From Candidatus Poribacteria bacterium (GTDB lineage Bacteria; Poribacteria; WGA-4E; WGA-3G): a DNA stretch of 64,000 bases. This document shows, in pieces, positions 1 through 61,573 of this stretch. The stretch lies in assembly GCA_022824265.1 (NCBI GenBank), contig JAJEAG010000021.1, forward strand, positions 22,577 through 86,576, written 5' to 3'. The translations under genes were made by a program, and so were the position numbers. The notes below the pieces were generated by a model. It was not told the origin of the DNA, did not search any database, and saw nothing but the letters and a program-made list of their open reading frames with translations. Position 1 is the stretch's first letter; every line of letters begins with the position of its first letter.

Positions 1-334
1 TCTGTGGTTGCTACCGGGAAGTCATAAAGCGATGCATGACCCAAACCATGATGACCTGCGTTATCCGTATCAATATCCTGGTGCTTTGGAGGTGTGTGCC
101 TCTGCGGGAAGCGCGATTTTATTCCATAACGCACTGTGGCATTCTGCGGGTATATTTACCAAACCCGAAGGATGTCGCGAGATGCTGTATTACGCTTATG
201 AACATCCGTGGATGATTGCATCTCAGGAGCATTGGGGGTATCCAAAAGATTTCTACGATACGAAACTATCACCTGCGCAACGTAAGTTTTTTCACGGATT
301 TGTCTTTGATCCTCCTGAACAGAGATGGGGGTAG
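1..334 (+). CDS. PhyH (phytanoyl-CoA dioxygenase) family Fe(II)/2-oxoglutarate oxygenase, C-terminal fragment; the 5' end lies outside the window
   Basis: The frame is open from the window edge to the stop at 332-334. 'LPGSHK' and 'AILFHNALWHSAG' match motifs in the three complete PhyH paralogs of this window. Confidence 0.75.
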   Translation, partial: LWLLPGSHKAMHDPNHDDLRYPYQYPGALEVCASAGSAILFHNALWHSAGIFTKPEGCREMLYYAYEHPWMIASQEHWGYPKDFYDTKLSPAQRKFFHGFVFDPPEQRWG

Positions 335-355: not shown

Positions 356-1234
356 ATGCGTTTAACTGAAACTGAGGTGTCGTTTTTCCACGATAACGGG
401 TATCTACTGCTTGAGGATGTGTTAGATGAAAATGACCTTGATCCTGTGATTGAAGAGTATTCAACATTAATCGCTGAACGGGCAGAAAAATTGCACAATG
501 ATGGTCAAGTTACCTCTACACACACTGATAAACCATTCACTGAACGACTACTTCATCTCGCTGCAGAAGCACCTGAGGTTACTGCAGATTTGGACATTAT
601 GCGTGCCCGTGGTGAAGCAACATTTAACTTTCTCAGAAACCAAAAAATCCTTGACCTTGCAGAGTCATTTGTTGGTTCAGAGATTGTCTGTAATCCCATA
701 CAACACATCCGTGCAATATTACCGATAAAGGAATCTGAACGTCTTCCCACGCCTTGGCATCAGGATGCAGGTGTCTGTTGGCCCGATACAGACTCCTATT
801 TCATGCTTACAATTTGGATACCGATTGTAGATGCGACTTTGGAAAATGGGTGCCTACAAGTGTTACCCGGAAGTCATAAGTTTGGATTATTTCCACATGC
901 TTGGAATCAAGCTGGATTGGCAGTTCCACCGGAACATCAACCGCCAGACCTGACACCGAAGGAGTTACCGATACGTGCTGGAGGAGTAATACTTTTTCAC
1001 AATTACACGTTACACAGCGCAAAACCGAATGAGTCGGATACTGTCCGATGGAGTTTTGATCTGCGTTATCACGATGTATATCAACCGACAGGAAGACCTT
1101 ATTATCCTGCGTTTCTGATGCGGAGTCGAATGCGTCCAGAAGCATGTGATACAGATTACGAAACGTGGTGTAAACGATGGGAATTTGCGCTTGAAAATTC
1201 CAAAGGTGTACAGGCTTACCGTTGGAAACGGTAG
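356..1234 (+). CDS. PhyH family dioxygenase
   Basis: 292-aa ORF with a GAAGGAG RBS about 8 nt upstream of the ATG. Family hallmarks present: 'FFHDNGYLLLEDVL', 'PWHQDAG' (HxD), 'VLPGSHKFG' and 'ILFHNYTLHSAKPN' (distal His). Confidence 0.85.
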   Translation: MRLTETEVSFFHDNGYLLLEDVLDENDLDPVIEEYSTLIAERAEKLHNDGQVTSTHTDKPFTERLLHLAAEAPEVTADLDIMRARGEATFNFLRNQKILDLAESFVGSEIVCNPIQHIRAILPIKESERLPTPWHQDAGVCWPDTDSYFMLTIWIPIVDATLENGCLQVLPGSHKFGLFPHAWNQAGLAVPPEHQPPDLTPKELPIRAGGVILFHNYTLHSAKPNESDTVRWSFDLRYHDVYQPTGRPYYPAFLMRSRMRPEACDTDYETWCKRWEFALENSKGVQAYRWKR

Positions 1235-1685: not shown

Positions 1686-4019
1686 ATGCGACTAACACGC
1701 GTTTTATTTATTACAATTCTGCTTCTCAGCGCACTTTTACTATCATACACCTTCGCAGAAGACTACACACAATGGGGATTGCCTGAAGGTGCGAAGTTCA
1801 GACTTGGAAAAGGTGAACTCAAAAATTTCAGAGGAAGAACTCAATACCAGTTTACTCCAGATAGCAGTCAACTCATTGTAATCAGTTCGATTGGAATTTG
1901 GCGATACGATGTACATACAGGAAAAGAACTTAGTTTAACGTCTAAATACTTGGATCAAATGGATGAATTTATTGTTCTCAGTCCAGATTCAACGACTTTC
2001 ATTGATATCGGTAATGGATTGAACCGAAACAAGATTGAATTGTGGGATTTACATAGTGATGAACTTAGAAATACCTTTGAAAACCCATCTGGTGAAGTGA
2101 ATTCATTAGCGTACCATCCGAATGGTCGAATGTTCGTCAGTGGTGATTCTGAAGGGGTAATACGGTTATGGGACATTGAGAATGGAGAAAACCAAGAATT
2201 TCTAAGACTACAGCAACGTATTAGCAAGGTCGCTTTTAGTCCTGATGGAATGGCAATTATGTGTTGGAGCGATGGGATTATTCAGTTATTTGAGACCAAA
2301 ACAGGAAAAGCCATATCGAAATTAGAAAAGATGGAGGATATTGATCATATTTACTTCGGTCCCAATTGGAAACTTCTCGTTGGTGAGAAAAATAGAGAGA
2401 TTAGAATTTGGGATGGTGAAAGTGGTAAGGTAAAAATAAAGTTGGACTATCCCAATTGGGATAAACGTTACGCACTTTCCCTTGACGGAAAAACTATCGC
2501 GGATACAAAAAATAATGATTCAACAGTCCGGTTGTTGGATATACACACAGGTGGGATAATAAATACATTCACAGGCGAAAATATGAGAAGCCGTGTTCAG
2601 TCTATAGCATTTAGTCCTGATGGACAGACGATTGCGATTGCAAGTTATGGTGAGATTCGGTTGTGGGATACGGACTCAGGTATACATAAAGCAACCCTAA
2701 ATGGAATAGGATCTTTTTACAATCTTCTATTTAGTCCTGATGGACACACGTTTGCAGCGCGAGGTCACACATCCAAAAGAGAAACTGGACTTTATTTATG
2801 GGATATTGACTCAACAGATCTTCAAAAATCCAAACTGAAGCATTTCATTACCGGACATAAGCATTTCATTACCGGACATAACAATAAAATATCTTGCTTA
2901 TCCTTTAGTCCGGATGGACAAAAACTTGCAAGTGGACATGATCACTTAGTACGGTTGTGGGACGTTTCTGATGGAAAACATATAACTACAGGTCATGGAC
3001 ATCCAGTTCAAGTAAATGTTCGGTCTGTAGGTTTTTCTCCAGATGGAAACAAACTTGCGAGTTTATGCTTGACTTTTCAAAGTTCTAATTCAAATGCAGA
3101 GGTGCTTTTATGGGACGCTGCTACTGGTGAATATCAAGTTACCTTAAAGGGACATGGCAAAGCTATTGGAAAATCTCGTCCGTGGCACTCAAATAGCATG
3201 GTATTTACTTCCGATGGTAAAAGACTTGTAAGTGGAAGTCTTGATGGGACTGTTCGTTATTGGAATCCAAGAACAAAAGCACGAGATTCATTCTTTCATA
3301 ATATTTGGGGTTTAAATTTTGGGCACCACAAAACAACCTTAAAAGGTCACAAGAATCATGTGCTTTCTGTTGCATTAAGTCCTGATGGAAGTATGCTTGC
3401 CTCTGGCAGTGCGGATCATACGGTCCGTCTATGGGATGTACGTAAACACAAACTAATTGCAACGCTTGGAGAAATTGATGAGAATGCAGATACAGTTAAT
3501 CCAGACATTTTCAAAGGTATACCAATAACAAAGAACGCAACAATTATAAAAGATAACAGTGGTGCTATACATAGCCTTGCTTTCACTCCCGATGGGAAGA
3601 CACTTATAGCAGGTGCCAAAGAGAGGATAGTCCTTTGGAATATTCTCACAACTAAACGGACACTTTCCGTTACTTTGAAAAGTAATAATACTGCTACGGA
3701 ATATATAACTGCCGTCCACAACTATAAGGATGTTTCAACAACAAAGCCAAGCAACATTCAGATTGGTAATCCAAATAATGTTCAATTCCGTCAGACATCA
3801 ATCACAACTTTTGCACTTTGTCCTGATGGTAGTACACTTGCAGTTGGCTCTCCAATGGGAGGAATTGTATTGTTGGATATTCCTACATTTAATGTTAAAA
3901 AAACCTATTTACATAGACCTATGGGATGGGTAATGGATCTATCATTTAATCCGGATGGTTCTTTACTTGCGAGCGGAAGTATGGACGGTACTGTTCTTAT
4001 TTGGGAGTTAGAAAAATAA
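1686..4019 (+). CDS. Exported WD40-repeat protein (777 aa)
   Basis: The N-terminal signal-like segment is 'LLLSALLLSYTFA|EDY'. Many blades follow, with 'FSPDG..LASGS.DGT[IV]RLWD' signatures. Confidence 0.9.
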   Translation: MRLTRVLFITILLLSALLLSYTFAEDYTQWGLPEGAKFRLGKGELKNFRGRTQYQFTPDSSQLIVISSIGIWRYDVHTGKELSLTSKYLDQMDEFIVLSPDSTTFIDIGNGLNRNKIELWDLHSDELRNTFENPSGEVNSLAYHPNGRMFVSGDSEGVIRLWDIENGENQEFLRLQQRISKVAFSPDGMAIMCWSDGIIQLFETKTGKAISKLEKMEDIDHIYFGPNWKLLVGEKNREIRIWDGESGKVKIKLDYPNWDKRYALSLDGKTIADTKNNDSTVRLLDIHTGGIINTFTGENMRSRVQSIAFSPDGQTIAIASYGEIRLWDTDSGIHKATLNGIGSFYNLLFSPDGHTFAARGHTSKRETGLYLWDIDSTDLQKSKLKHFITGHKHFITGHNNKISCLSFSPDGQKLASGHDHLVRLWDVSDGKHITTGHGHPVQVNVRSVGFSPDGNKLASLCLTFQSSNSNAEVLLWDAATGEYQVTLKGHGKAIGKSRPWHSNSMVFTSDGKRLVSGSLDGTVRYWNPRTKARDSFFHNIWGLNFGHHKTTLKGHKNHVLSVALSPDGSMLASGSADHTVRLWDVRKHKLIATLGEIDENADTVNPDIFKGIPITKNATIIKDNSGAIHSLAFTPDGKTLIAGAKERIVLWNILTTKRTLSVTLKSNNTATEYITAVHNYKDVSTTKPSNIQIGNPNNVQFRQTSITTFALCPDGSTLAVGSPMGGIVLLDIPTFNVKKTYLHRPMGWVMDLSFNPDGSLLASGSMDGTVLIWELEK
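2838..2879 (+). repeat. Perfect in-frame 21-bp tandem duplication (2 x AAGCATTTCATTACCGGACAT) inside the WD40 gene
   Basis: Read directly from the sequence. It encodes KHFITGH-KHFITGH. Confidence 0.95.
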
Positions 4020-4041: not shown

Positions 4042-6258
4042 ATGAATAAAATATATAGATCCATAATGATACTGCTCTTGATTAACATAATGTCTCTCTC
4101 GTCTGCTTTTGCAGAAGACTACACACGTTGGGAACTACCAGAAGGTGCGAAGTTAAGGCTTGGGAAGGGAAAAATTCCTACAAACCGACTAAACCAATTT
4201 CCTCCATATATTTTTTCACCTGACAGCACGAAGTTCGCAGTGATGAGTTCACTTGGAATTTGGTTATACGATGTTCAGACAGGTAAAGAACTCGCTCTTT
4301 TACCAATAGCATTGAATCATATCAGTTGGCAGTTAGCATTCATGCCTAACAGTAATATTTTCGCAAGTGGAGACGTAAAAGGAGATATTCATTTCTGGAA
4401 TATCATTTCCAAGAAACATATAAAAATAATTACAGGTCACGCGCATTCGATTACAGGAATCTGCTTTAATTCCGATGGAAGTGTGCTTGTTTCAGGAAGT
4501 GGAGACGAGACGATACGATTGTGGGATACTAACACCGGACATTATAAGACAATTAATGTTGGGTATAGACCTGACACGGTTCTGTTGAGTCCTGATGGAA
4601 TGACACTCGCAACTTCTGGTTGGGAAGGTATCATGCTATGGAACGTAAATACTGGTGAACTCAAACATAGATTAGAAAATACAATATATAGCTTCCGAGT
4701 TAAATTTAGTCCTGATGGAAAGCTACTCGCAAGTAGTAAAGGTGAAGACACACTGTTATGGAATGTTGAAACAGGAAAAATCAAGATGAAATTCAAGGAT
4801 ACAAAGGAAAGGACTTCTATTGCATTCTCACCTGATGGCAAATGGTTTGCTACTATAGGAAAAAATCGCTATACAGTTCAATTGTGGGAGGTCCATACCG
4901 GAAAACTGAAAGATACATTTGAAGGAACACCCGATTATGTTGATATAATTGTGACCAATGAGGATGGTAAGAAAGAAAAGATCAAAGAAAATGGCAATAT
5001 AGTGAACACTTTTAAGTTTAGTCCTGATGGAAAGACCCTTGCTGTCTCTTATGTGAATGAGGAGATATTGTTGTGGGACATTCTCACTGGTCAACGGCAA
5101 ACAAAGCTTGAAGGTACACGGAATGTGTATGACTTGATGTTTAGTCCTGATGGACAGACCCTTGTTTCAAGGAATCAATACGGTATTTGTTTATCGAACA
5201 TAAACACAAAAAATATAGTAAAATCTGAACTGCGCCAAATGATTACGGGGCATCACTCAAATGCAAAATCTGTTGCATTTAGTCCTGATGGACAAACAAT
5301 GGCAAGCGGACATAGGGATTCACTTCAGCTGTGGAATACTACAACAGGTAAAATCAAACTAAGATTCAAAGAAACATTTTATCAGTCAGATATTCAGTCC
5401 GTGGCTTTCTCTCCGAATGGAAAAGTCATTGCCAGTTTAAGTCCTGATTATACGTATTTAGATGTGAACCTGTGGAATGCTGCCTCCGGAGAACACATAG
5501 TTGCCTTCAATGGACACGGTGAGAATAATAGGAAGGATTCTTCCCACCCATATACCAGGAACATTGCTTTTAGTCCAGACGGGAAAAATCTTGTCAGTGG
5601 TAGTCCTGATAATTTGGTGCGGATGTGGGATGTAAAGATTGCAATAAGTAACTCACACATTGATCCGTTTCGAGAACGTATCAGAGGTATTCAGACAGCT
5701 GTGTTTAAAGGACATACGGACCATATTTTATCGGTTGCATTTAGTCCTGATGGGCAGGTTCTTGCAAGCGGCAGTTCTGACAAAACTATCCGACTTTGGG
5801 ATGTCAACAAACGGAAACAAATTGCAACCCTTGAAGGACATACAGAAGAAGTTCTTACTGTTACCTTTAGTCCCGATGGTAAGACTCTTGCCAGTGGATG
5901 TCGTCACGGTTCTATACATTTGTGGGATGCTCACACCGGTAAACACAAGATTTCACTTATTGGAAATAGATTATTTTCTACACCTCCGTCTCTTCCTCCT
6001 AAAAAAGATGATCCACCTCATATTACTGGCAGGGGACGTGGTGATGTTTCCTCACTGATATTCAGTCCAGATGGGAATATTCTTGTCAATGGAAATAGAT
6101 ATGGAACAATTCACTTCTGGGACATAAAAACAAGACAGATCAAGTCATCTTTCTCAGGTCAAGGTGGTTTGAATTCTCTTGCTTTCAGTCCTGATGGACG
6201 CACACTTGCAAGTGGCAGTTCGGATGGGACAGTGCTTATATGGGATGTCAAACCCTAA
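4042..6258 (+). CDS. Exported WD40-repeat protein (738 aa), paralog of 1686-4019
   Basis: The signal-like N-terminus is 'SLSSAFA|EDY'. It shares the post-signal box 'AEDYT[QR]W[GE]LPEGAK[FL]RLGKG' with the upstream gene and has repeated 'FSPDGQ.LASGS.D.TIRLWD' blades. Confidence 0.9.
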   Translation: MNKIYRSIMILLLINIMSLSSAFAEDYTRWELPEGAKLRLGKGKIPTNRLNQFPPYIFSPDSTKFAVMSSLGIWLYDVQTGKELALLPIALNHISWQLAFMPNSNIFASGDVKGDIHFWNIISKKHIKIITGHAHSITGICFNSDGSVLVSGSGDETIRLWDTNTGHYKTINVGYRPDTVLLSPDGMTLATSGWEGIMLWNVNTGELKHRLENTIYSFRVKFSPDGKLLASSKGEDTLLWNVETGKIKMKFKDTKERTSIAFSPDGKWFATIGKNRYTVQLWEVHTGKLKDTFEGTPDYVDIIVTNEDGKKEKIKENGNIVNTFKFSPDGKTLAVSYVNEEILLWDILTGQRQTKLEGTRNVYDLMFSPDGQTLVSRNQYGICLSNINTKNIVKSELRQMITGHHSNAKSVAFSPDGQTMASGHRDSLQLWNTTTGKIKLRFKETFYQSDIQSVAFSPNGKVIASLSPDYTYLDVNLWNAASGEHIVAFNGHGENNRKDSSHPYTRNIAFSPDGKNLVSGSPDNLVRMWDVKIAISNSHIDPFRERIRGIQTAVFKGHTDHILSVAFSPDGQVLASGSSDKTIRLWDVNKRKQIATLEGHTEEVLTVTFSPDGKTLASGCRHGSIHLWDAHTGKHKISLIGNRLFSTPPSLPPKKDDPPHITGRGRGDVSSLIFSPDGNILVNGNRYGTIHFWDIKTRQIKSSFSGQGGLNSLAFSPDGRTLASGSSDGTVLIWDVKP

Positions 6259-6283: not shown

Positions 6284-7180
6284 TTATTTAGCAAATGGAC
6301 GGAAACCTCGTACCATTAGACCACGATCACTGTTGGCTTTCTTCGCTTCTTCTGCTGCGGCAGCACGTTTTTCTGCTTCTGCTCGATTTTCTGTAGTTGT
6401 TCCACCGATTATTACAAAGTCATCGGTTCGACGGTAACGGTTGATAAAGACCGGACGCGGTTTGTCAGACATATTTTGTTTTGAACCGTGTACAGTCTTG
6501 ACATTGAAAAAGATAGAATCTCCCGCATTTCCAATCACGGGAAGTGCGCTCTCCCAGGGCCACTCATCTTCCTCTAAACCGAGATGTGAGAATGTATCAA
6601 CATGTTTGAGTTGTCCAAGACGATGTGATCCTGGTACTACGTATAATGCACCGTTCACAAGGTCGGTATCCACAACATAGTTCAAGATACCTACTGGACC
6701 TTGATACCGATGCTCAAAATAAGCAGAATCTTGATGTAGGTGTTTGGGATGTCCGCCAACAGGTTCCTTGTAGAGACACTGTCCATTACCGAAAATCTCA
6801 ACGTTTGGACCAAGAATTGCTTCAACGATTTTGACGGCATTTTCATCAAAAGCTGAATGGAAAAATGCTGCACTTGACTGATAGTTAATTGCCAAAACCA
6901 TTATCTGCTTGTCTCGATCATACCCTTGTGGGGCAGGAATGAAAAGCGTCCCGTTGGGTGTTCTCCACCCTTCAACAATCTGTTGCGCCTGATCAAGAAG
7001 TGATAAGGATTCTGATGCTGCAGCTTCTATATCCTGATGGATTTGCTTAATATAAGGCTTCATCAAACCTCGTACGACGAGGCAGCCGTGTTCCTCAAAT
7101 ATATCTGCAGCCTCTTGGAAGTCCAATTTATCAACAGACATTTCAATGTCTTCTATTTTTACATCTGATTCACGTTCCAC
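6284..7180 (-). CDS. PhyH family dioxygenase
   Basis: 298 aa with a GTG start preceded by an AAGGAGAG RBS. Motifs present: 'HLHQDSAYF' (HxD), 'VVPGSHRLGQL' and 'FFNVKTVHGSKQN'. Confidence 0.8.
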   Translation of the reverse strand: MERESDVKIEDIEMSVDKLDFQEAADIFEEHGCLVVRGLMKPYIKQIHQDIEAAASESLSLLDQAQQIVEGWRTPNGTLFIPAPQGYDRDKQIMVLAINYQSSAAFFHSAFDENAVKIVEAILGPNVEIFGNGQCLYKEPVGGHPKHLHQDSAYFEHRYQGPVGILNYVVDTDLVNGALYVVPGSHRLGQLKHVDTFSHLGLEEDEWPWESALPVIGNAGDSIFFNVKTVHGSKQNMSDKPRPVFINRYRRTDDFVIIGGTTTENRAEAEKRAAAAEEAKKANSDRGLMVRGFRPFAK

Positions 7181-7636: not shown

Positions 7637-8737
7637 TTATAACTTAATTGTAGGCATCCGAAGGGCTTGTGATTCTGAAGGTTGCATACCATCTGAACAA
7701 TTACGTATCTGAATAAGTTGAGATGCGATGCTTACCGCAATTTCAGGTACAGTCTTTGAGTTTATGTCTAATCCGATAGGTGCATATACTCGCTGCAATT
7801 TTTCTTGCGGAATACCGATGTCTAATAAATCATCAAAAATCAGTTTTATTTTCCGACGACTTCCAATTAATCCGATATATCTTGCATTAGATTCAACGAC
7901 ACTGTGAAGTGCAGACTCATCGTGTTGGTGTCCCCGGGTGACAATTACCACGTAGGTAAGATGGTTTTTAGGATATTTTTGAAGTTCTTCAGCAATATCA
8001 CCGATGATAATTTCGTCTGCTTCGGGGAGTCGTTCCGCCGATGCAAAATCTGCTCTATCATCAACAATAACAATATCAAAGTCCAACCAACTACCTATAT
8101 GGCAGAGAGCCTGTCCGACATGTCCAGCACCTGCTATTAGTAGAGTTGGTCGCGGTTGTAGCGGTTCCAGAAAGACTGAAGTAGTATCGTCTTGTTGAAA
8201 CAAACCTGCACTGTTTTTTTCAAGGATATCGGTAATTTGGTTTTCCACATCGGCTTCCAATGCCGTATTTCCCAAGGTGCCGATCCGTTCACCGTTTGTA
8301 GCAAATATCATTTTCATGCCGATTTTAGCAGTTTGATTATTGCTTTTCACAACTGTTGCACACATAAGGGGAATCTTTTCAGCATTTAGTTCCTGAAGTC
8401 GGTTAAACATTTCTGCTTCAGAACGAGTTTGTGGTAGGTCAATGAAGATTTTCATATTTCCGCCGCAGATTAAACCATCGTCCCATCCGTAATCACTATC
8501 CAACTGGAATTCCAGCAGTCGTGGGTTTCCATCTTGCATTAATCCGATGGCTTGTCGTCTTGCTTCTGCCTCAACACAACCACCCCCAAGTGTGCCAATA
8601 TTTCGTAAATCAGGAAGTATCAGGAGCTTTGCACCGGGTTTTTGTGGAGTAGAACCTTTGGTTTCAACGACAGTACAGTATGCACCGACTTGCTCTGATG
8701 CTATTAATTCTGGGATTTTTTGATATATCGCTCTCAT
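7637..8737 (-). CDS. XdhC/CoxI family molybdoenzyme maturation (accessory) protein
   Basis: The N-terminal XdhC_CoxI-like region is 'AYCTVVETKGSTPQKPGAKLLI'. The C-terminal Rossmann-like region is 'LLIAGAGHVGQAL'. No xanthine dehydrogenase or CO dehydrogenase subunits are nearby. Confidence 0.8.
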   Translation of the reverse strand: MRAIYQKIPELIASEQVGAYCTVVETKGSTPQKPGAKLLILPDLRNIGTLGGGCVEAEARRQAIGLMQDGNPRLLEFQLDSDYGWDDGLICGGNMKIFIDLPQTRSEAEMFNRLQELNAEKIPLMCATVVKSNNQTAKIGMKMIFATNGERIGTLGNTALEADVENQITDILEKNSAGLFQQDDTTSVFLEPLQPRPTLLIAGAGHVGQALCHIGSWLDFDIVIVDDRADFASAERLPEADEIIIGDIAEELQKYPKNHLTYVVIVTRGHQHDESALHSVVESNARYIGLIGSRRKIKLIFDDLLDIGIPQEKLQRVYAPIGLDINSKTVPEIAVSIASQLIQIRNCSDGMQPSESQALRMPTIKL

Positions 8738-8840
8738 CAGTACTTAATTACTTGTTTCACGCATTATGTCGAATCAAGCTATCTCTGTGTAGGAGTAAGT
8801 AAGAATTGTTTATTTTATCTAATTTCCTTTAGGCGTCCAA

Positions 8841-8868
8841 CCCCGTCTTTTAAGGCGGGGATGTGACA
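8841..8868 (-). repeat. GC-stem hairpin element, copy 1 (CCCCG-N10-CGGGG followed by ATGTGACA on the + strand)
   Basis: It lies 7 nt downstream of the stop of the minus-strand ORF 8875-9183. The related copy is at 9212-9242. It could act as a weak intrinsic terminator on the minus strand. Confidence 0.5.
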
Positions 8869-8874
8869 TCTGCT

Positions 8875-9183
8875 TTAGCATTTTTTCTTGACAGCAAACG
8901 CCAAGTCTGTTAATCTGTTCGTAGCAGCCGGCATTAGTTGTGATTGATGTTGTGGTAGACAGCTAAGCAGTGAAACAATCACGTAAAAGCCTTGCGATTC
9001 AAGACTGCTAAAGTTCTTTGTAACATCTATTGCACGTTCAGGGAAAGCAGCGTAACAACTCATCCCGTCTAAATCACGTGTGCTAATCGTTTTTAAGACC
9101 TCCTTTGGAGGTGCAGTTGGGACATCAACTGTTGGAGTAGGCTTTGTCAGACTTTCTTTGAAAGCAAAGGTCATTGATCCCAC
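8875..9183 (-). CDS. Hypothetical small protein (102 aa); coding status uncertain
   Basis: This is the only sizeable ORF between two copies of the hairpin element. It has a GTG start and no recognisable motif. Confidence 0.35.
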   Translation of the reverse strand: MGSMTFAFKESLTKPTPTVDVPTAPPKEVLKTISTRDLDGMSCYAAFPERAIDVTKNFSSLESQGFYVIVSLLSCLPQHQSQLMPAATNRLTDLAFAVKKKC

Positions 9184-9211
9184 GATCTACCCTGTGTGAG
9201 GGGACTAAGAA

Positions 9212-9242
9212 TCCCCCACGCTTTAGCAGGGGGAGTATGTCA
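9212..9242 (-). repeat. GC-stem hairpin element, copy 2 (TCCCCC-N11-GGGGGA followed by GTATGTCA on the + strand)
   Basis: It overlaps the TGA stop (9240-9242) of the MDH-like ORF. The stem type and 3' flank match copy 1. Confidence 0.5.
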
Positions 9243-10169
9243 ATTAACACTTTGTTCTGTAGCACTTTGTGCAATGAGTTGTTTAAACTGTTCACGCTGT
9301 GGTTCAGTTAACTCTAACGGAACAATACCTTCTATTCCGTTACTCCCGATTTTAGCGGGAACATTTAAAAATACTGATGTTGTGTCAGTTGAAATTAGTG
9401 TACCGACACTCATAACTCGTTTCTTATCAAGACTGATTGATGATATAAGCTGTAGAATATGGCTTGTAAGGGTAAATTCGTTTGCGGAAGTATATTGACA
9501 ACGTTCTGCAACATCAGTAATGAGATTCTGGATTTGTGGTTCATCCATTAATTGTGTGAGAGGAATTCCGTTAACTCTACAATACTGTGGCAACGGATAC
9601 GTTACTGCGTCATTCCCAATTGCCAATGCAGATACATCTTTCACAGATAATCCAATTCGACTTGCTATTTCGGCTTTTAAATGTGCTGTAGCAACACCGT
9701 TTGCAATACCAATTAAGTTACTTAATTCATAAGTCTGATGTATCCACGCGGCAACATAGTTTGCAAAAGGCATCGCAACCAATATGATAGCATCCTGAAT
9801 AGATGCTTGAATTTTTGGAACAATATTTCGAGCATTTGATAAATTCGTCGTTTTCAATGCCTGTGTTGAGTGGAAACCATACGGCAGGGACGTTGGCAGC
9901 AGTACTACTACATCCGATTCAGCGAGATCCTCAATATCGTTTGTAACAGAGACATCAGAATCACTCGCGCTCAATGCATTTGCATGTGTAAGATCTTCTA
10001 CACCATCAGCAGTAGAAGTGCTTTTTGTTACGCGCCGGGTCCCTTGTATTTTACCAGATTGTGTTCCAGTGAATATTACAATATCCTGAGCAAGTTCAGA
10101 ATGACAAATTCCCCAAGCCACAGTATATGCAAACTGATTTTGTCCAATCAATGCTATTTTCATGCGCAT
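9240..10169 (-). CDS. Malate/lactate dehydrogenase-fold protein with degenerate cofactor and catalytic motifs (probable pseudoenzyme)
   Basis: The 309-aa protein is collinear with LDH-like MDHs: 'MRMKIALIG...', 'DVVVLL', 'LDKKRVMSVGTL', 'VPAKIGSNGIEGIV'. However, GxGxxG reads 'GQNQFA'. The substrate-Arg loop reads 'TSLPYGFHS'. 'D..R' reads 'ATAHL'. The catalytic-His box 'GGHGD' reads 'IGNDA'. Confidence 0.75.
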   Translation of the reverse strand: MRMKIALIGQNQFAYTVAWGICHSELAQDIVIFTGTQSGKIQGTRRVTKSTSTADGVEDLTHANALSASDSDVSVTNDIEDLAESDVVVLLPTSLPYGFHSTQALKTTNLSNARNIVPKIQASIQDAIILVAMPFANYVAAWIHQTYELSNLIGIANGVATAHLKAEIASRIGLSVKDVSALAIGNDAVTYPLPQYCRVNGIPLTQLMDEPQIQNLITDVAERCQYTSANEFTLTSHILQLISSISLDKKRVMSVGTLISTDTTSVFLNVPAKIGSNGIEGIVPLELTEPQREQFKQLIAQSATEQSVN

Positions 10170-10174
10170 AGTTC

Positions 10175-12970
10175 CTATATCAATGTCTCAACAATTTCTT
10201 GGAAACGAGATTCAAGATTTTCACGTTGTTTGATCATCTCAGCATCTGCGTTTAATTTAGTATCCAGTAATTCATCGTAACGCTCAACATATTCCATTAA
10301 AGTTTCTACTTCTTTTTCGTAACACACGGCAGTGGATAATACTTTTTCCTTGACAATGACAGGTAGTTCATCATTGGTAATTTGTGTTAATTCCCATCTC
10401 CATACTTTTTCAGAAATATATGATACAAATCTATCTAAAACTTCCCCTTCATAACTACTATTTTGAAGTTCTTTTACCTCTTGAATAAGTCCTAAAACTT
10501 GGTTGAACAGATCATCTGATAGGATATTACGCAACTCCATTAAGATACGTCCGGTAGTAGATATCGGTAGTTGGTTTTGTAGCAGAAATACTCTAAGATT
10601 TTGATAATCATCCAAAGTTTTTATATCTGTAAGCCATGTTTTTTCAATTTCAGGAAGTTCATTTAAATCAAAACTTAATACCTGATTTTTCCTTAATTCT
10701 TCAATATCTGTGCCCCGTTTATTAATTCCAGCATGCGCTAATGTATACAACGACTGTGTTTCCCCATAAGGCTTCAAAAACGTTATCATCTCACTAACTT
10801 TTGTCTGTTCTGCTTGTATTGTGTCATAAGTGAGATTCCCATTATTATTGGGATTGGTAGCATTTCGTTTTTTACCTTTTCGTTGTGGATTTGAAAATCT
10901 GCTTGCCCGTTTTGCTAAAGTGTCATCGTATTTTTCCAATTCTTGACGAAGGAGAGACAACGTTACATCGCTATGTATTTCGAGTTTCTTTGCAGTCGTT
11001 ATATCACGAATAGAATGTCCGGTTTTGGCAACAAGTGCTTTATTCAGGTTGCGTTCAAGAGTTTTACGATCCTTTTCGCTCTCAACAACGAGTTGACTTT
11101 CCAAGGTGAGATTCATTAATCTTTTCGTCTGGTCTGGGACGCTGATGTTGATATCACATACTGGTTGAAAATCGGTCAGTAGTTTTTCACGAGATTTTCC
11201 ATTAAGTACTAAACTCCATAAAGTAGTGTAATAAGCTTGAAGTTTTTCAGTTTCAGATGGAGCTTGTTCTACCCATAGTTTAGTGATATGTAAACTATCA
11301 TCAATCTGTTCAAAGATGTGTTCAAGTTCAGAATCATCTATTTCAAACCCAATAAATTTTGCAGTCGAATTCCGGTTTGAATGGTTGTTCTTATTGGTAT
11401 TCGCTGATTTTTTTGCTAATAGTATATTCTCAAGCGGTTGGACTAACTTTTCAAAATCCTGTTGATGCATACTTGTAAAGTTTGCAATATGTAGTAAAGT
11501 CGACCAGATATTATGTAATCTATCAAGTTGCTCTGGATGGAGTGTTGAACGTATTCCGATCCGATTCAACTTTTCACGTATAGTGCCAGAAGTCCATTCG
11601 GGAAGATATATTTCCTCCATTGGAATATCATTTTCAGATATCTTTAGATTGACTGGTTTTACGTAACCTTTATCAATTAAATCGGCTTCAAAAACGAGAT
11701 CATGGAATAGTGCAGTGGCTTTATCCACTAACTGATTGGTCAAGGTGTAACTTGATTGAATCATGTAGTTAATGGTTAATTCTTGATTTTCTTGCAGTTG
11801 CCACTGTTCAATTATCGGGTTAATATTATCTTTAAGTGCGTCGGTAGCGGATTTTGTTGCTTCTTGATCAAAATGTTCGCCAAGATAGCTTTCATAGAAC
11901 TCACAGAAGGAGTTAAATGTATTCCTTAATTCACGTATAACCAGATCATCCCAAACCTTATTGTGTATACGTTGTCCTCGATTAAGCATCAGTGCTCGGA
12001 GTCGGCTTTCCACCCCTTGATGAAATTGTGCCATCAGTTGAAATACATGTTCATTTGCCTTAACGATATAGTTCTCTATTTTGGAGGAACTATTAGCAAT
12101 TGCCTCTTCAATTACATCCGATTGATCAGTAAATGCAATAGGAACTAATTTGACAAATGTGGGTTCAATCGGGTTATATACAGCTGCAGTTGGCAGTACC
12201 TTGACTGATAGTGGTTTTTCAGAACCCTTTTCATCTATAAATTTGTTATGAATTGTTAAACAGTCACCTAAATCAGTTAGGTCGGGGTAGGTTTTAATAA
12301 GTGTCCGCACCACGACTAAAACTGTATCATATTCTCCATTCTCAATCTCTGTGTACATTACATCCTCGTTGAGATGTAAACGGTGGATATGAGTCTGTTC
12401 TGGTATAACAACTTTAACTGAAGTATCGTCTGTATCTGTTCTTGTGAGGACAAAACCACCTGTTTTAATAGTGTTAGGTACTATTAAGCGAGATTCTAAT
12501 ACTTCCTCAGTCAGTTCAGAAAGTGTTAGAGATTTTCCCAAATGTTGTACGGTTATATTTGTAATTACACCGTCAGCAAAATCGGTGATTTGTCGTGTGT
12601 TACGTTCTAATTCTTGTACACTTTTGTGAACACGGTCATAATCATCATCTGCAGAAGCCTGTATCTTAGGTTCGTCAATCCAAGATATCCATGCTCCTGG
12701 ACGATGCTTTATTTTTAGTGTGAGTTTTCCATCTTGAGAGTCAAAAGCAGGAAGAATTTGGCTTTCAGAGGTAACTTTAGGAGTCCATATAATCAAATGT
12801 TTATTGTTATTATTACCGAGACCAACTCCAAATGTGTCGCCCCAACTAATCCTACCTTCAACACTTGCTTTGATCTTATCAGTTAATGTAAAAAGTGAGT
12901 CAGAGTTAAAATTAAGAGATATATCTTGCATTGCGTCAATTAGACGAGTCCTCCAAATGTTGGTAATCAA
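10175..12970 (-). CDS. Large uncharacterised protein (931 aa)
   Basis: One long uninterrupted ORF. Its TAG stop lies 5 nt before the ATG of the MDH-like ORF. I could find no NTPase, nuclease, protease or transmembrane signature. Residues 1-300 look beta-rich and the rest mostly helical, with two Asn/Lys-rich linkers at about aa 520-535 and 690-712. Confidence 0.85.
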   Translation of the reverse strand: MITNIWRTRLIDAMQDISLNFNSDSLFTLTDKIKASVEGRISWGDTFGVGLGNNNNKHLIIWTPKVTSESQILPAFDSQDGKLTLKIKHRPGAWISWIDEPKIQASADDDYDRVHKSVQELERNTRQITDFADGVITNITVQHLGKSLTLSELTEEVLESRLIVPNTIKTGGFVLTRTDTDDTSVKVVIPEQTHIHRLHLNEDVMYTEIENGEYDTVLVVVRTLIKTYPDLTDLGDCLTIHNKFIDEKGSEKPLSVKVLPTAAVYNPIEPTFVKLVPIAFTDQSDVIEEAIANSSSKIENYIVKANEHVFQLMAQFHQGVESRLRALMLNRGQRIHNKVWDDLVIRELRNTFNSFCEFYESYLGEHFDQEATKSATDALKDNINPIIEQWQLQENQELTINYMIQSSYTLTNQLVDKATALFHDLVFEADLIDKGYVKPVNLKISENDIPMEEIYLPEWTSGTIREKLNRIGIRSTLHPEQLDRLHNIWSTLLHIANFTSMHQQDFEKLVQPLENILLAKKSANTNKNNHSNRNSTAKFIGFEIDDSELEHIFEQIDDSLHITKLWVEQAPSETEKLQAYYTTLWSLVLNGKSREKLLTDFQPVCDINISVPDQTKRLMNLTLESQLVVESEKDRKTLERNLNKALVAKTGHSIRDITTAKKLEIHSDVTLSLLRQELEKYDDTLAKRASRFSNPQRKGKKRNATNPNNNGNLTYDTIQAEQTKVSEMITFLKPYGETQSLYTLAHAGINKRGTDIEELRKNQVLSFDLNELPEIEKTWLTDIKTLDDYQNLRVFLLQNQLPISTTGRILMELRNILSDDLFNQVLGLIQEVKELQNSSYEGEVLDRFVSYISEKVWRWELTQITNDELPVIVKEKVLSTAVCYEKEVETLMEYVERYDELLDTKLNADAEMIKQRENLESRFQEIVETLI

Positions 12971-13047
12971 ACGAAGTGTTGTTTATTTACTTCATTGATT
13001 AGAATATGATTAACTTGGTTACTACTCTTTATAGTATAAAAGTGTTG

Positions 13048-13626
13048 TCAATATACTTTTTCTTTTTTCTGTACTTGTCTTATTTCAAGTCCCCACACGT
13101 CCCAACCATCAACTTCCTTTCTTGCGAATAGTTCTATTTTACTCTGTTCAGGAAACATCTCATCAATACGTCGTCGTACCTCATCAGGTTTTTCGGAATG
13201 TCGAGTTCTTTTGGATTGGACAAGTTGACGGATATTTCTCATTCCTCTCGGTTGCGGAATAGTTCCACGTTTAAACACGAGACATAATTCGCATTGGCTC
13301 ATGGTATAAAAACCAGGATTTAGGCGGCACTTATCCCAAATAAAAGCGACTGTTGCCCAGCGAAATCCCCATGCTTTACCTAACATTATTGCTTGGTCAA
13401 GGTGAGGAGACGAACTCCACATAAACAAAAGACTGTTCTGGGTACTGATAGCTGCAATATTCCATTTGACCATCTCTGTTACAGAAATGGTTGGATAATG
13501 TCGTATTGCTCCACCGCTATCTTTTCCTGCTGCACCAGTGTATTGCAGTTGCCCTTTGTAATCCCAAGGTGGGTCAGCGTAGAGTATCTGATATTGTTTT
13601 TTTGGAAACGGAGGGTGTAATACCAT
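13048..13626 (-). CDS. MT-A70 family DNA N6-adenine methyltransferase
   Basis: 192 aa with 'YADPPWDY' (DPPW motif IV), 'HSEKPDEV' and 'ELFARKEVDGWDVWGLE'. These are classic MT-A70 signatures. Confidence 0.85.
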   Translation of the reverse strand: MVLHPPFPKKQYQILYADPPWDYKGQLQYTGAAGKDSGGAIRHYPTISVTEMVKWNIAAISTQNSLLFMWSSSPHLDQAIMLGKAWGFRWATVAFIWDKCRLNPGFYTMSQCELCLVFKRGTIPQPRGMRNIRQLVQSKRTRHSEKPDEVRRRIDEMFPEQSKIELFARKEVDGWDVWGLEIRQVQKKEKVY

Positions 13627-13724: not shown

Positions 13725-14273
13725 TTACTGTGCTTCAACACTAAGTCCTTCCTGAACAATGTCATTGTTTGCAACCAACATATCACGGTCAAAGATAAAA
13801 TCACTCCGTTTGCTGCCAAGTTTTTCACCTTCTGCTTGACGTTCACGAAAATATTGCGGTAGTGTCAGTCCAGTCATACGTATAGCGTCTTCTGGACAAG
13901 CTTCAACACAATACCCGCAAAAAATACAACGTAGCATATTTATTTCAAAAATATCAGGATATTTTTCACGTTGATATCCTTCTTTGGTTGTCCATCCTTC
14001 TGGTGCAGGTGCTGCCTGAATTGTAATGCAGTCAGCGGGACAAGCAGTAGCACATAGGAAACATGCAACGCACTTTATTTCATCTTTTTCAGTGGTGGTC
14101 AATTTATGTATTCCGCGATATCGATCGTTTCGTTCATTGACACTTCTTGGGTCTTCTGGATACTGTACCGTTAATTTTTTTTTGGGAATATGTTTTAATG
14201 TTGTGAACATTCCCTTAATCAACGCGGGGATATAGAGTCTATCCCAAAATGACATTTCTTCGCTAACTTTCAT
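13725..14273 (-). CDS. NuoI-like 2x[4Fe-4S] ferredoxin (complex I subunit I family), solitary
   Basis: Motifs 'CVACFLCATACPADCI' and 'CIFCGYCVEACPEDAI', plus the NuoI-type N-terminus 'GMFTTLKHIPKKKLTVQYPE'. I chose the ATG at 14273 because it has an AAAGGA RBS. The ORF track begins at a TTG at 14306. Confidence 0.75.
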   Translation of the reverse strand: MKVSEEMSFWDRLYIPALIKGMFTTLKHIPKKKLTVQYPEDPRSVNERNDRYRGIHKLTTTEKDEIKCVACFLCATACPADCITIQAAPAPEGWTTKEGYQREKYPDIFEINMLRCIFCGYCVEACPEDAIRMTGLTLPQYFRERQAEGEKLGSKRSDFIFDRDMLVANNDIVQEGLSVEAQ

Positions 14274-14316
14274 AAACGAATTTCCTTTCTGATATGAAAT
14301 TTTCAATCAAGATAGT

Positions 14317-15846
<1,530 letters not shown>

Positions 15847-16087
15847 TTAGGTGGGTAAAAAGGCTTGTGAATGTAGTCCTAAAAACACGTATACCAAGTG
15901 TAATGTATTATATCATATTCTCACTTTCATGTCAAAATATTTTTGGTATCTTTTAAATGTAAAAAACTGACCGATGTCATAGACATTATATAAAAATTCT
16001 GCAAAGTTAATCAACATTTTTTAATCATTACAATTTCATCAACTGTGGTAAAATATCTTAAACAGTAGAAAAAAGGAGTAATATAAA

Positions 16088-28479: not shown

Positions 28480-28666
28480 TAGTTGTTTTTTCGGTTTTTG
28501 TGTTTTGGTATGTCGTCATTGGTTTCCTCGATTTTGCAAGTTCTGTGTTGGATGTTGGGTTATATTATACTTGAGGGCCGTTTGGTTTTGTAGTGTTATT
28601 GCGTTTGATAACAATATATATCCAATATGTTTGATGTCTGTTTCAGTTTTTTGGTTTAGTTTTCAG
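28480..28666 (+). repeat. TG-rich, C-poor interspersed repeat, copy A
   Basis: It aligns with 44191-44440 (same strand) and, more distantly, with the reverse complement of 52605-52725. I hand-counted 17 C in 28481-28660 (180 nt). Confidence 0.85.
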
Positions 28667-38382: not shown

Positions 38383-38430
38383 CCAGGATGAGAGGGTTGG
38401 GGTTAGGAAACCCCAACCCTCTCATCCTGG
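38383..38430. repeat. Perfect 22-bp-stem palindrome with a 4-nt loop (CCAGGATGAGAGGGTTGGGGTT-AGGA-AACCCCAACCCTCTCATCCTGG)
   Basis: Read directly from the sequence. It lies 87 nt downstream of the stop of the minus-strand gene 38518-39591 and may act as a terminator or REP-like element. Confidence 0.9.
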
Positions 38431-38517: not shown

Positions 38518-39591
38518 TTATCCGTTTTGTCTCCGCTGCATTTCGGTGTTGACGGCGCGAATACCCATCGCCGTCTCGTTAATCTGATTGTTTGCGTGGT
38601 CGCGAAATCCGTACTTGCGTGCGTGGTTCTTAATGTAGGCACCACACAGATGGTATCCGACGCATTGCGGAATATCCCAGAGCGCGTCCATCACTTGGCG
38701 ATAGTGGTCTACATCATGCAAGCGGTCCGCTGTCGGGGGCCATCCGGCATCACCGTGGGTGCGTATATGCCCCGCCGCGTCTGCCAGGAGCACCGGTTTG
38801 TCTGCGAAGTCTGCCCAGTGCCGCATCTTCGTGGTGATATTCTCTACTGTCCCAAAACATTGAAAACTGAGCACATCAACGTAGGGCAGTGCCGCATGGA
38901 CCACCTCTTCTGGAAGTGCTGCGTTTGCCTCCCATCGGTCACCGAGGATTAAGTGGTTCGGGTCGTAGCGGCGGATAACGTCATGGGTGACCCTATAGTA
39001 GCGTTCGGCAATCGCAGAGAGTTCACGGCGGCCTGCCGCTGATTCGAGCAGGTCTGGATCGACTAACGACCCACGCCATTTCGTGTCAGGCGAGGTATGC
39101 ACCCACTGCGGACAATCGCAGTAGAAGTAACCAATCAGTTTCGGATCATCGCGCAAGCGGGAGCACACATCGCGGGCAACGTAGTCACACCACTCCTCAA
39201 AATCGGCACGCATCAGGTCGGGCATACGCACCTCAACTTGCCATTGATGTGCCTCGGTGAAAGGGAGCAGGTGGCAGTAAGGCATATCCGCCCATTGGTA
39301 TTCTTCATAAGTAAAGGGGCGCGAATGTCGATGGTAACCTTGCGTGATAATTACGACCTCTTGGGTCCAGCCAATCGTGTTAAAGCCCCAATCCCGCAAG
39401 TCATTGGCGACTGCGCGTAGCCAATGTTCATGGCTGTTGCCGAACTCTCGGTTCCATACATCGTCCGAGTCTGTATACCGCAACGCGGCCGAGTCGATAT
39501 GGTTCATGCCGATGGACCAGAATCGCGCACCTTCCGGTGTGATAAACCACCAACGCCCGTCTCGCTTCTCAATCGTGTAACAGTCTGCCAT
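38518..39591 (-). CDS. Glycoside-hydrolase-like (TIM-barrel type) protein; the function call is tentative
   Basis: The start is at the ATG at 39591, after an AGGAG RBS. The 'RWWFITPEGARFWSIGMNHID' N-terminus and 'GFNTIGW' resemble GH-clan proteins. G+C is clearly higher than in the neighbours. Confidence 0.5.
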   Translation of the reverse strand: MADCYTIEKRDGRWWFITPEGARFWSIGMNHIDSAALRYTDSDDVWNREFGNSHEHWLRAVANDLRDWGFNTIGWTQEVVIITQGYHRHSRPFTYEEYQWADMPYCHLLPFTEAHQWQVEVRMPDLMRADFEEWCDYVARDVCSRLRDDPKLIGYFYCDCPQWVHTSPDTKWRGSLVDPDLLESAAGRRELSAIAERYYRVTHDVIRRYDPNHLILGDRWEANAALPEEVVHAALPYVDVLSFQCFGTVENITTKMRHWADFADKPVLLADAAGHIRTHGDAGWPPTADRLHDVDHYRQVMDALWDIPQCVGYHLCGAYIKNHARKYGFRDHANNQINETAMGIRAVNTEMQRRQNG

Positions 39592-39793
39592 GCTGTTGAC
39601 GCTCCTTTCATCTTCTTGACAATCTTTAACCATTGTAGCAGTTTACACGATTTGTGACGATCTTTTCATGTAAATGAGGCTATTTAGTTAGCAAAGATTT
39701 TGATATGTTCTATCACAGATGTTATCCGTGTTCTTCCGTGTTTTCCGCTATTCTGACCACCCATCGATTCAGATATGAAAAAGTTAGAATTGC

Positions 39794-43895: not shown

Positions 43896-43961
43896 GTAGG
43901 AGGGCACTCCGATTCTCGACTAACGATATGTTTCGTCGCGATTCGGAAATCGCTCCTACAG
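43896..43961 (+). repeat. 66-nt repeat with GTAGGAG/CTCCTAC termini (family R3)
   Basis: It aligns end to end with 61436-61501 ('GTAGGAGGG.ACT.CGATTC..GAC...TTTCGTCGCGATTCGGA.ATC.CTCCTACAG'). Confidence 0.85.
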
Positions 43962-44190
43962 AGGAATAACTTTAGTAAATAGTCATAATTAATGGTAAAC
44001 TGAATGGCTCTGAATGAAAATTGGAATAACCGATTTAATAACTTTATCTGCATTTAGTTGTTTTTAGTTGTTTTTTAGTCGTTTTTTTTATATTTTTGGT
44101 TAAGTGTCCTCGATCCTGTAGTGATAAGGGTTTAAGTCGGTTTTTATTATTGACGGAAATTAAAAAAAACAACTAACAGCAAGTTTTTTT

Positions 44191-44440
44191 TAGTCGTTTT
44201 TTCGGTTTTGTGTTTTGATATGTTGTCATTGCCTTGCAGAAGTATTGTGTGATTTATTTGAAGATTTCGTTTTTGGATTTGGCAGATTGTCATTGGGTTC
44301 CTCTATTTTGTAAGTTGTGTGTTGGTTGTTGGGTTATATTATACTTGATGGTCGTTCGTTTTTGTAGTGTTATTGATTTTGATAACAATATATATCCAAT
44401 ATGTTTAATGTCCGTTTCAGTTTTTTGGTTTAGTCTTCAG
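44191..44440 (+). repeat. TG-rich, C-poor interspersed repeat, copy B
   Basis: It aligns with 28480-28666. It carries a 64-nt extra segment bounded by the direct repeat TTGTCATTG (44223-44231 and 44287-44295). Confidence 0.85.
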
Positions 44441-61435: not shown

Positions 61436-61501
61436 GTAGGAGGGAACTTCGATTCCTGACTATCAGTGAGTTTCGTCGCGATTCGGAGATCACTCCTACA
61501 G
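61436..61501 (+). repeat. Family R3 repeat copy
   Basis: It aligns end to end with 43896-43961. Confidence 0.85.
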
Positions 61502-61573
61502 AAATGTGTCTCTTTAATTTCAATGTTCACTATAATCATGCAATTTCCTCAATATCAATATACAATCTCATGA

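Follow-up and report, generated by a model that had tools for sequence, protein, structure and literature searches.

Small MT-A70 methyltransferases of phages and bacteria (beta-class, MunI-like) are proteins of about 190 amino acids (aa) that carry a full-length PF05063 domain with a DPPW motif. Methylases that are conserved, vertically inherited and without an adjacent nuclease are known as orphan methylases, with Dam and CcrM as examples. The LDH-like malate dehydrogenases (LDH, lactate dehydrogenase; MDH, malate dehydrogenase; Protein Data Bank (PDB) entries 4plh, 1guz and 1gv1) belong to a fold whose members are obligate dimers or tetramers, and MPN-minus proteins such as Npl4 and those of the KIAA0157/Abraxas type are inactive MPN/JAB scaffolds without the metal-binding motif. 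Defence systems, in turn, are typically patchy in their distribution and mobile. Here we analyze a locus from a Candidatus Poribacteria bacterium (assembly GCA_022824265.1, contig JAJEAG010000021.1, positions 22,577 to 86,576; this stretch of 64,000 nt is referred to as the window), in which three genes encode an MT-A70 methyltransferase, a large protein and an MDH-like protein (Table 1). An initial annotation had placed three open reading frames (ORFs) on the minus strand, which was confirmed by our ORF listing, and had interpreted them as a candidate defence or epigenetic module. Our results point to a different arrangement, probably a composite of an orphan N6-methyladenine methyltransferase and, independent of it, a co-translated scaffold and pseudoenzyme adaptor. 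We found no support for a new defence mechanism. The methyltransferase adds one more member to a well-known family, and what remains is a pair of conserved, lineage-specific genes from a symbiont phylum that is uncultivated.

The 192-aa protein matched Pfam PF05063 over the complete profile (positions 1-172 of 172) with 59.3 bits against a cut-off of 23.9 (E=6e-16), as well as PHROG 359, annotated as 'DNA methyltransferase' (E=5e-60), and the PADLOC model MTase_II PDLC03262 (E=3e-55), and it was the only member of the trio with a significant match to a PADLOC model. Its DPPW motif is intact (ILYADPPWDY, residues 14-23) and aligns with the DPPW of MTA1 from Tetrahymena (7f4r), and the ratio of nonsynonymous to synonymous substitution rates (dN/dS) of its gene amounted to 0.03-0.10. 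To judge from its sequence, this gene encodes a bona fide, complete MT-A70 family N6-adenine DNA methyltransferase, in line with the initial annotation, and it shares the full-length domain, the DPPW motif and the length of the small phage and bacterial enzymes. The enzyme looks active and appears to be an orphan with no partner nuclease nearby. No restriction endonuclease was found beside its gene, the neighbours being the Fer4 gene and the large gene, and no nuclease domain was detected with any library. Since there is no adjacent nuclease and the large protein persists in genomes without the methyltransferase, the locus does not qualify as a type II restriction-modification system. The resemblance to Dam and CcrM, likewise conserved and vertically inherited without an adjacent nuclease, is a functional analogy and to our knowledge the MT-A70 methyltransferase is not homologous to either of them.

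More than 3,600 homologues of the methyltransferase were found. In contrast to known MT-A70 proteins, the type found in the window is confined to one poribacterial clade and to relatives of 63-69% identity in unrelated sponge symbionts, namely 69% in the actinomycetotal Ca. Poriferisodalis and 63% in the gammaproteobacterial AqS1, and the 516 phage records with MT-A70 relatives did not exceed 40.6% identity. This sharing across unrelated phyla suggests a horizontal spread of the methylase within the sponge microbiome, which fits reports that CRISPR, restriction-modification and similar defence features are enriched in sponge microbiomes (PMC5099237, PMC5649159). Literature searches combining Poribacteria and MT-A70 returned nothing specific. 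In the one non-poribacterial context examined (L118, AqS1-type, 63%), the MT-A70 gene lies among housekeeping genes and neither of the two partners is present there. The gene is thus found alone elsewhere, an observation that had been named beforehand as one that would speak against the unity of the trio.

The MDH-like protein can be aligned from end to end with LDH-like malate dehydrogenases of similar length (4plh, 1guz, 1gv1) at about 25-29% identity and E-values of 1e-22 to 1e-20. A search of PDB sequences yielded 83 matches at E<=1e-3, the best being 4plh (E=1.4e-22, query residues 2-299). However, NCBIfam scores remained far below the respective cut-offs (114 of 283 bits for NF004863, 100 of 352 for TIGR01763 and 65 of 304 for TIGR01771), and the residues required for NAD binding and catalysis are replaced throughout the family. 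In 20/20 members aligned with 4plh, the GxGxxG loop as well as Asp53, Arg102, Arg109, Asn140, Asp168, Arg171 and His195 are all changed, and the initial annotation had therefore been right in describing an inactivated MDH/LDH homolog. The nucleotide-binding GAGNIG became GQNQFA, GHSQLA or GNSQLA (20/20), and in all members IGGHGD became IGNDAV or IGSDQE (His to Asp), DSSRFR became ATAHLK and PRKPGMSRD became LPYGFHSTQ. Further differences to malate dehydrogenases are an insertion of 12-20 residues after the second strand in the window's clade and new motifs that are conserved across the family, ATAHLK and PLPQYCRVNGIP, the latter with an invariant Cys. As the dN/dS of the gene is 0.10-0.15, it is a conserved pseudoenzyme gene and not a decaying one. 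The 309-aa protein is hence best described as a predicted LDH/MDH-fold pseudoenzyme that has lost its catalytic residues. It has no match in PADLOC-DB 2.0, literature searches on bacterial LDH/MDH pseudoenzymes returned nothing specific, and, as far as our searches show, the family is a catalytically dead branch of LDH/MDH that has not been described before. Several members (P0132, P0137, P0213, P0217, P0226) carry the IMG/JGI label 'malate dehydrogenase', and a pseudoenzyme of this name could distort metabolic reconstructions of uncultivated sponge symbionts such as the Poribacteria.

The large protein has 918 aa and is soluble and acidic (105.6 kDa, isoelectric point 5.1) with no hydrophobic segment. 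As had been noted, it matches no known family or fold: there was no match in Pfam, NCBIfam, PADLOC, PHROG or PDB sequences, and no Foldseek match at E<=0.001 in PDB or BFVD. Matches to DUF7841, RUN, DUF6994 and SAVED, obtained in scans at E<=5 that included 11 divergent homologues searched singly, were inconsistent and are considered chance (PADLOC SAVED: E=0.032, with no significant stretch). A hepatitis C virus NS5B match (E=0.07), the sole outcome of PDB searches with the single sequence and with a 131-sequence profile, is due to low complexity. The absence of nuclease, helicase and ATPase domains, which the initial annotation had reported for the trio, also held in our searches. Its description of the large protein as an orphan did not hold: we found 280 homologues, and all those that bear a source name come from Candidatus Poribacteria. 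The best 120 of the 280 are full-length (891-957 aa) and 56-96% identical. An exhaustive profile search against 1.84 billion representative proteins retrieved only 24 clusters of the large protein (at 50% identity), and a metagenome scan with the deep-lineage homologue P0244 gave no matches. The family is restricted to its phylum, yet universal within its clade, and its gene is under purifying selection (dN/dS 0.10-0.16).

The large gene and the MDH-like gene appear to form an older, Poribacteria-specific linked gene pair. The distance from the stop codon of the former to the start codon of the latter is 5-11 nt in the window, depending on the start codon used, with a median of 17 nt across 79 loci, which compares with medians of 177 nt between the MT-A70 gene and the large gene and of 126 nt between the MDH-like gene and xdhC. 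The tight coupling claimed for these two genes is therefore real and they are conserved as a pair. Both genes evolve about twice as fast as their neighbours and show near-equal values for dN/dS and dN (0.163/0.148, 0.100/0.099 and 0.111/0.128). Among five neighbouring genes their distance matrices gave the highest correlation (r=0.96), and a partial correlation of 0.53 was left after the other three genes had been regressed out.

Sampling at rising evolutionary depth separates true partners from mere neighbours. In the window's clade (L001-L030, L036-L114), where the large protein is 54-96% identical, Fer4, MT-A70, large, MDH-like and XdhC genes occur together. In an intermediate lineage (L115/L116), with a large protein of 48% identity, GuaB is present and Fer4 is followed by a gap of 216 nt and then by the large, MDH-like, XdhC and hypothetical genes, and no MT-A70 match was found anywhere in 18.9 kb. 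The neighbours are diverged in this lineage as well (MDH-like 37.5%, GuaB 75% identical), and its MDH-like protein retains a GGG remnant (GGGSCI) of the nucleotide-binding loop, His195, Arg171 and Arg109 being gone there too. In deep lineages (L032-34, L117, L119), where identity drops to about 26%, the large protein of 1107-1326 aa occurs alone, with neither an MDH-like nor an MT-A70 gene. An ABC ATPase gene lies upstream of the deep large gene; it is assigned by Pfam (TOBE_2 domain) in L032-34 and L117, and in the case of L119 it can only be deduced from ORF size and position. Some deep homologues contain a highly acidic, Pro/Glu-rich insert that separates the basic linker from the C-terminal domain; it comprises about 300 residues in P0244 and is shorter in P0243.

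The MT-A70 gene is separable from the large/MDH-like pair. The simplest history that these sequences suggest is one in which the large protein dates far back in the phylum, with the pseudo-MDH as a later addition and MT-A70 as the latest. MT-A70 was probably acquired horizontally within the sponge microbiome and came to lie in the spacer that separates Fer4 from the large gene. Either it was inserted in this way in the ancestor of the window's clade or it was lost from the intermediate lineage.

The three genes are part of a stretch of conserved gene order. The order GFO/GuaB-Fer4-MT-A70-large-MDH-like-XdhC-hyp122-PhyH holds in 28/28 loci from 28 species-level genomes that were collected through the large protein, and in 27 of these the trio is contiguous and co-directional; the remaining locus (L001) ends before the MT-A70 slot. 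A collection made through the MDH-like protein returned 124 loci, 80 of which were kept (78 titled Poribacteria and 2 uncultured bacterium). The large gene and the MT-A70 gene are in place at 74 of the 75 loci that have enough upstream sequence. In the exception, L043, which shares contig PYJA01000114 with L013, the large and the MDH-like gene are parted by an insert of four genes. This insert is a co-directional block of 6.6 kb (L013 10760-17370) that encodes an STT3-like oligosaccharyltransferase of 802 aa and proteins of 330, 465 and 231 aa with no Pfam match. Altogether, the collinear run was seen in more than 100 Candidatus Poribacteria species. As the housekeeping flanks are equally syntenic, synteny at the depth of the window's clade says nothing about a functional module, and a methyltransferase beside genes of no known family does not make a module if all its surroundings are just as conserved.

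Composition and selection do not set the trio apart either. With 47 genes of the window as reference (mean G+C 40.6%, standard deviation 3.1), the G+C contents were 35.9% for the large gene (z=-1.5), 39.2% for the MDH-like gene (z=-0.4) and 41.6% for the MT-A70 gene (z=+0.3), and gene-wise G+C and third-position G+C (GC3) of all three genes were within 1.5 standard deviations of the window mean. The claim that the unit is slightly AT-rich thus applies to the large gene, where the deviation is within the normal spread, and not to the other two, which are average. Purifying selection acts on each of the three genes (dN/dS 0.03-0.16). The segment is conserved core chromosome of a sponge-associated Candidatus Poribacteria genome and not a defence or genomic island; its collinearity with the core, its normal composition and the absence of MT-A70 from the intermediate lineage contradict the proposal of a defence or epigenetic module. 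The true compositional outlier of the window is a 371-aa ORF on the minus strand (38518-39633) with 54.7% G+C and 61% GC3 (z=+4.6 and +5.6 against the other genes). It has no Pfam match and was probably acquired by recent horizontal transfer, and a perfect inverted repeat of 22 nt is located just downstream of it (38383-38430).

A leader of 26 nt precedes the ATG of the large gene (Table 1) and is conserved at the nucleotide level in 79/79 distinct orthologous upstream regions (L002-L114), which belong to lineages whose synonymous sites are saturated (dS > 1.5). Its general form is a GGAGG or GAAAGG box, 8-9 nt, (T/R)AATYGAC, 2-3 nt and ATG, with a spacing that varies by 1 nt, and it exists in two clade-specific variants, GGAGG..TAATTGAC and GAAAGG..RAATCGAC. 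The purine-rich box is located 18-20 nt from the ATG and therefore too far away for a canonical Shine-Dalgarno site. The conservation of this element suggests that it is the large gene's own initiation or regulatory signal, independent of MT-A70. A structured RNA leader was considered and rejected, as RNAalifold found no consensus structure for 35 sequences and Rfam gave no match to the leader; the only Rfam match, to SAM-II, was below threshold (E=0.85) and located elsewhere. A hairpin at 13000-12965 is present in only a subset of lineages.

We obtained two AlphaFold2 models for the large protein. The first, built from an alignment of 30 sequences, had a mean predicted local distance difference test score (pLDDT) of 58 and was uninformative in Foldseek. 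The second, built from 131 sequences that included divergent relatives, reached a pLDDT of 81 and a predicted template modelling score of 0.68, and the domain layout in Table 1 is taken from it. A local resemblance to JAB/MPN domains over about 100-160 residues recurred with both models and in both libraries and was weak throughout (all E>=0.09), the matches being to RadC of Chlorobium, the MPN domain of Npl4, BRCC36/KIAA0157 and phage RadC/JAB proteins with probabilities of 0.6-0.93. In the case of phage RadC the probability was 0.92-0.93 with a root mean square deviation of 2.9-3.3 Å over 100-111 columns, and for the Npl4 MPN domain it was 0.72-0.75. Pfam JAB or RadC profiles did not match the large protein even at E<=5. 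A JAMM protease can be rejected, as the E...HxHx7Sx2D motif is missing and THIHRLHLNED does not provide Ser and Asp at the required spacing; moreover, the HIH of the window protein is not kept in the family (NIH in P0241, ISA in deep lineages). According to the model, the JAB-like segment is at most an inactive MPN-like module. Its local fold weakly resembles inactive MPN/JAB scaffolds and RadC-like JAB proteins and, like the MPN-minus proteins, it lacks the metal-binding motif. It differs from them in that there is no sequence-profile support and that nothing corresponds to the remainder of the 918-aa protein. A classical helix-turn-helix at the TTTGR motif was rejected, since in the model the helices are joined by a loop of 7 residues, and profile searches gave no support for it. 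In P0255, a metagenomic ORF of 177 aa, a P-loop (KILYWGIGGSGKTT) and the C-terminal domain known from the large protein are directly fused, and this is probably a chimeric or frameshifted ORF.

Table 1. Positions of the genes and other features at the MT-A70/large/MDH-like locus, predicted layout of the large protein and location of its deep homologues
Feature	Position	Strand	Description
MT-A70 gene	13048..13626	(-)	192 aa
Large gene	10175..12931	(-)	918 aa, ATG start; ORF open back to TTG 12970 (931 aa)
MDH-like gene	9240..10169	(-)	309 aa; probable start 10163
guaB	14317-15840		upstream neighbour
Fer4 gene	13725-14306		NuoI-like 2x[4Fe-4S] protein; TIGR01971 112 bits, just under the cut-off of 113.05
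XdhC gene	7637-8737		downstream neighbour
Leader	12932..12957	(-)	26 nt before large-gene ATG: TTTGGAGG-N9-TAATTGAC-GCA-ATG
Terminator-like hairpin	9213-9233	(-)	after MDH-like gene; 7-bp stem including 2 G-U pairs, weak T tract
orf102	8875-9183	(-)	102 aa, in MDH-like-xdhC spacer; flanked by two CCCC...GGGG hairpins
Large protein, predicted	residues ~1-115		alpha+beta domain
Large protein, predicted	residues ~115-270		alpha/beta domain, weakly JAB/MPN-like
Large protein, predicted	residues 271-420		long helical bundle
Large protein, predicted	residues 448-505, 533-680		more helical regions
Large protein, predicted	residues 512-523, 684-699		disordered basic linkers; the second holds KGKKR
Large protein, predicted	residues 702-917		C-terminal helical domain, TTTGR motif nearly invariant
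Deep homologue P0244	L117 2445-6338
Deep homologue P0243	L032 8001-11324
Deep homologue	L119 7992-11972

The reading that we favour would run as follows. The ancestor of one poribacterial clade would have gained MT-A70 between its Fer4 and large genes and passed it on vertically, and the most likely substrate of the enzyme is the host chromosome, whose methylation would have an epigenetic or self-marking function and involve no partner nuclease. The large and the MDH-like protein would be translated from one transcript. Most likely they form a complex without catalytic activity, to which the dead LDH/MDH fold may contribute as adaptor or oligomerising subunit and the large protein as multidomain scaffold. 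This scaffold would predate the pairing, because deep lineages have the large protein alone. Several observations weigh against this composite. In every genome examined within the MT-A70-bearing clade the trio occurs together, and a functional link may conceivably have evolved secondarily within that clade. The support from the distance matrices is weak, because other pairs also reach partial correlations of 0.4-0.5 (0.49 for MT-A70/MDH-like and 0.42 for large/XdhC), and the four genes that part the pair in one species (L013/L043) indicate that tight translational coupling is not obligatory. Invariant polar motifs in the N-terminal half of the large protein (WGDT, WTPK, ELERN, DFADG, PEQT, HLNxD and YPD) are kept down to 26% identity and could mark an unrecognised active site, which would be at odds with a pure scaffold. 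Finally, co-transcription of the pair, its assembly into a physical complex, the scaffold and adaptor roles and methylation of the chromosome are points that we infer.

If the three genes formed one module, as the initial annotation had proposed, the methyltransferase would mark self DNA and the large and MDH-like proteins would be a novel effector or sensor. The contiguous and co-directional trio in the MT-A70 clade (27/28 and 74/75 loci), the match of MT-A70 to the PADLOC type II methyltransferase model and the local Foldseek matches to RadC/JAB, domains that occur in conflict proteins of phages and conjugative elements, agree with such a module. However, synteny is just as strong for the housekeeping genes on either side, some genomes have the pair and no MT-A70, and others have the large protein and neither partner, a situation in which an effector dependent on a protective methylase could not persist. 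For the same reason, namely its persistence without the methylase in two older lineages, the large protein was rejected as the restriction partner of MT-A70. In addition, the genes are single-copy, phylum-restricted, vertically inherited and under strong purifying selection, they show no compositional anomaly, and neither the large nor the MDH-like protein has a significant PADLOC, nuclease, helicase or ATPase match, so that we regard a single epigenetic or defence module as very improbable. A role of the pair together with the Fer4 ferredoxin and the XdhC chaperone, in the maturation of a molybdenum-cofactor oxidoreductase or its electron supply, would account for the contiguity of Fer4, large, MDH-like and XdhC genes that the window's clade shares with the intermediate lineage, for the short distance between the MDH-like and XdhC genes (median 126 nt, 3 nt in some species) and for the partial correlation between large and XdhC distances, and binding of a dinucleotide-like ligand would in principle be within reach of an LDH/MDH fold. 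In the window's clade, though, the nucleotide-binding loop has been destroyed, and deep homologues of the large protein are not found beside XdhC or Fer4. The spacer in front of xdhC is also very variable (up to 2.3 kb) and holds a terminator-like hairpin in the window, and guaB and PhyH are equally syntenic with no obvious link to such a function, which leaves this role with little probability.

The remaining alternatives concern the large protein itself. It could be an unrecognised enzyme, with its activity in the N-terminal alpha+beta and JAB/MPN-like domains, for which the MDH-like pseudoenzyme would act as allosteric regulator. The conserved clusters of polar and charged residues and the recurring JAB/MPN-like fold matches would be expected of such a protein, and pseudoenzymes commonly regulate active partners (for emerging pseudoenzyme functions, see the review in Biochem J 2023;480:715, PMC10211241). 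No catalytic family was assigned, however, every Foldseek E-value is at least 0.09, the JAMM motif (H-x-H-x7-S-x2-D) is missing, the HIH is not conserved and Pfam JAB and RadC profiles remain unmatched even at a permissive threshold. An enzyme is therefore unlikely in our opinion, without being far-fetched. Poribacteria have been reported to have an unusual internal cell organisation. Rather speculatively, the large protein and the dead dehydrogenase might constitute a phylum-specific structural or organisational machine, which derives from or mimics inactivated folds (MPN-minus-like and LDH/MDH-like) and into which the methyltransferase was secondarily wired via the leader in a sponge-associated clade. 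The target that remains after the composite reading is a 105-kDa protein family that is confined to Poribacteria, has no detectable relatives and is coupled to an LDH/MDH-fold pseudoenzyme.

Start codons were revised for two of the genes. The ATG at window residue M14 of the 931-aa ORF (12931) is present in 34/34 sampled orthologues of the large gene, and the DNA 5' of this ATG shifts in length by single nucleotides among orthologues, which indicates that it is non-coding. The large gene thus almost certainly starts at 12931, and with this start the gap to the MT-A70 gene amounts to 116 nt and not to the 77 nt given previously. The TAG of the large ORF (10177-10175) is followed by GAACT and by the first ATG of the MDH-like ORF. 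Because most orthologues begin with MKIAL, the MDH-like protein probably starts at the second ATG (10163), 11 nt past the TAG of the large gene. An AGGA sequence overlaps the stop codon of the large gene, ahead of the MDH-like start.

The identities of the neighbours as guaB, a NuoI-like gene and xdhC agreed with Pfam and NCBIfam assignments. The spacer between the MDH-like gene and xdhC comprises 502 nt in the window (8738-9239) and 3-2285 nt in relatives. The unit had been said to end at a repeat hairpin; the hairpin at 9213-9233 exists, and a search of the window that allowed up to 3 mismatches found a single copy of its sequence. Terminator-like sites are no commoner than in shuffled sequences (5 found, 6.6 expected). 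The small orf102 in the same spacer was rejected as part of the unit, as it is fully conserved only in the nearest relative (L001, 98%) and has otherwise one partial match of 51%, on the opposite strand elsewhere in L027, and it is considered lineage-specific filler.

A perfect sigma-70-type promoter match with extended TG (TTGACA, 17 nt, TATAAT; 15907-15935, minus strand) is located upstream of guaB and heads the co-directional run of genes from guaB to PhyH. Two intergenic repeats may be REP-like (repetitive extragenic palindromic) or miniature mobile elements: one of 171 nt occurs at 28496-28666 and 44270-44440 with 88% identity, and one of 67 nt with self-complementary ends (GTAGGAG...CTCCTAC) occurs at 43896-43962 and 61436-61502 with 84% identity. 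Tandem paralogous genes for WD40 beta-propeller proteins of 777 and 738 aa are found at 1686-4019 and 4042-6258, both on the plus strand. Genes for PhyH dioxygenases lie at 356-1234 (plus strand) and 6284-7180 (minus strand), and further PhyH genes are present in L029/L030. Eukaryote-like repeat proteins and PhyH expansions are typical of sponge symbionts.

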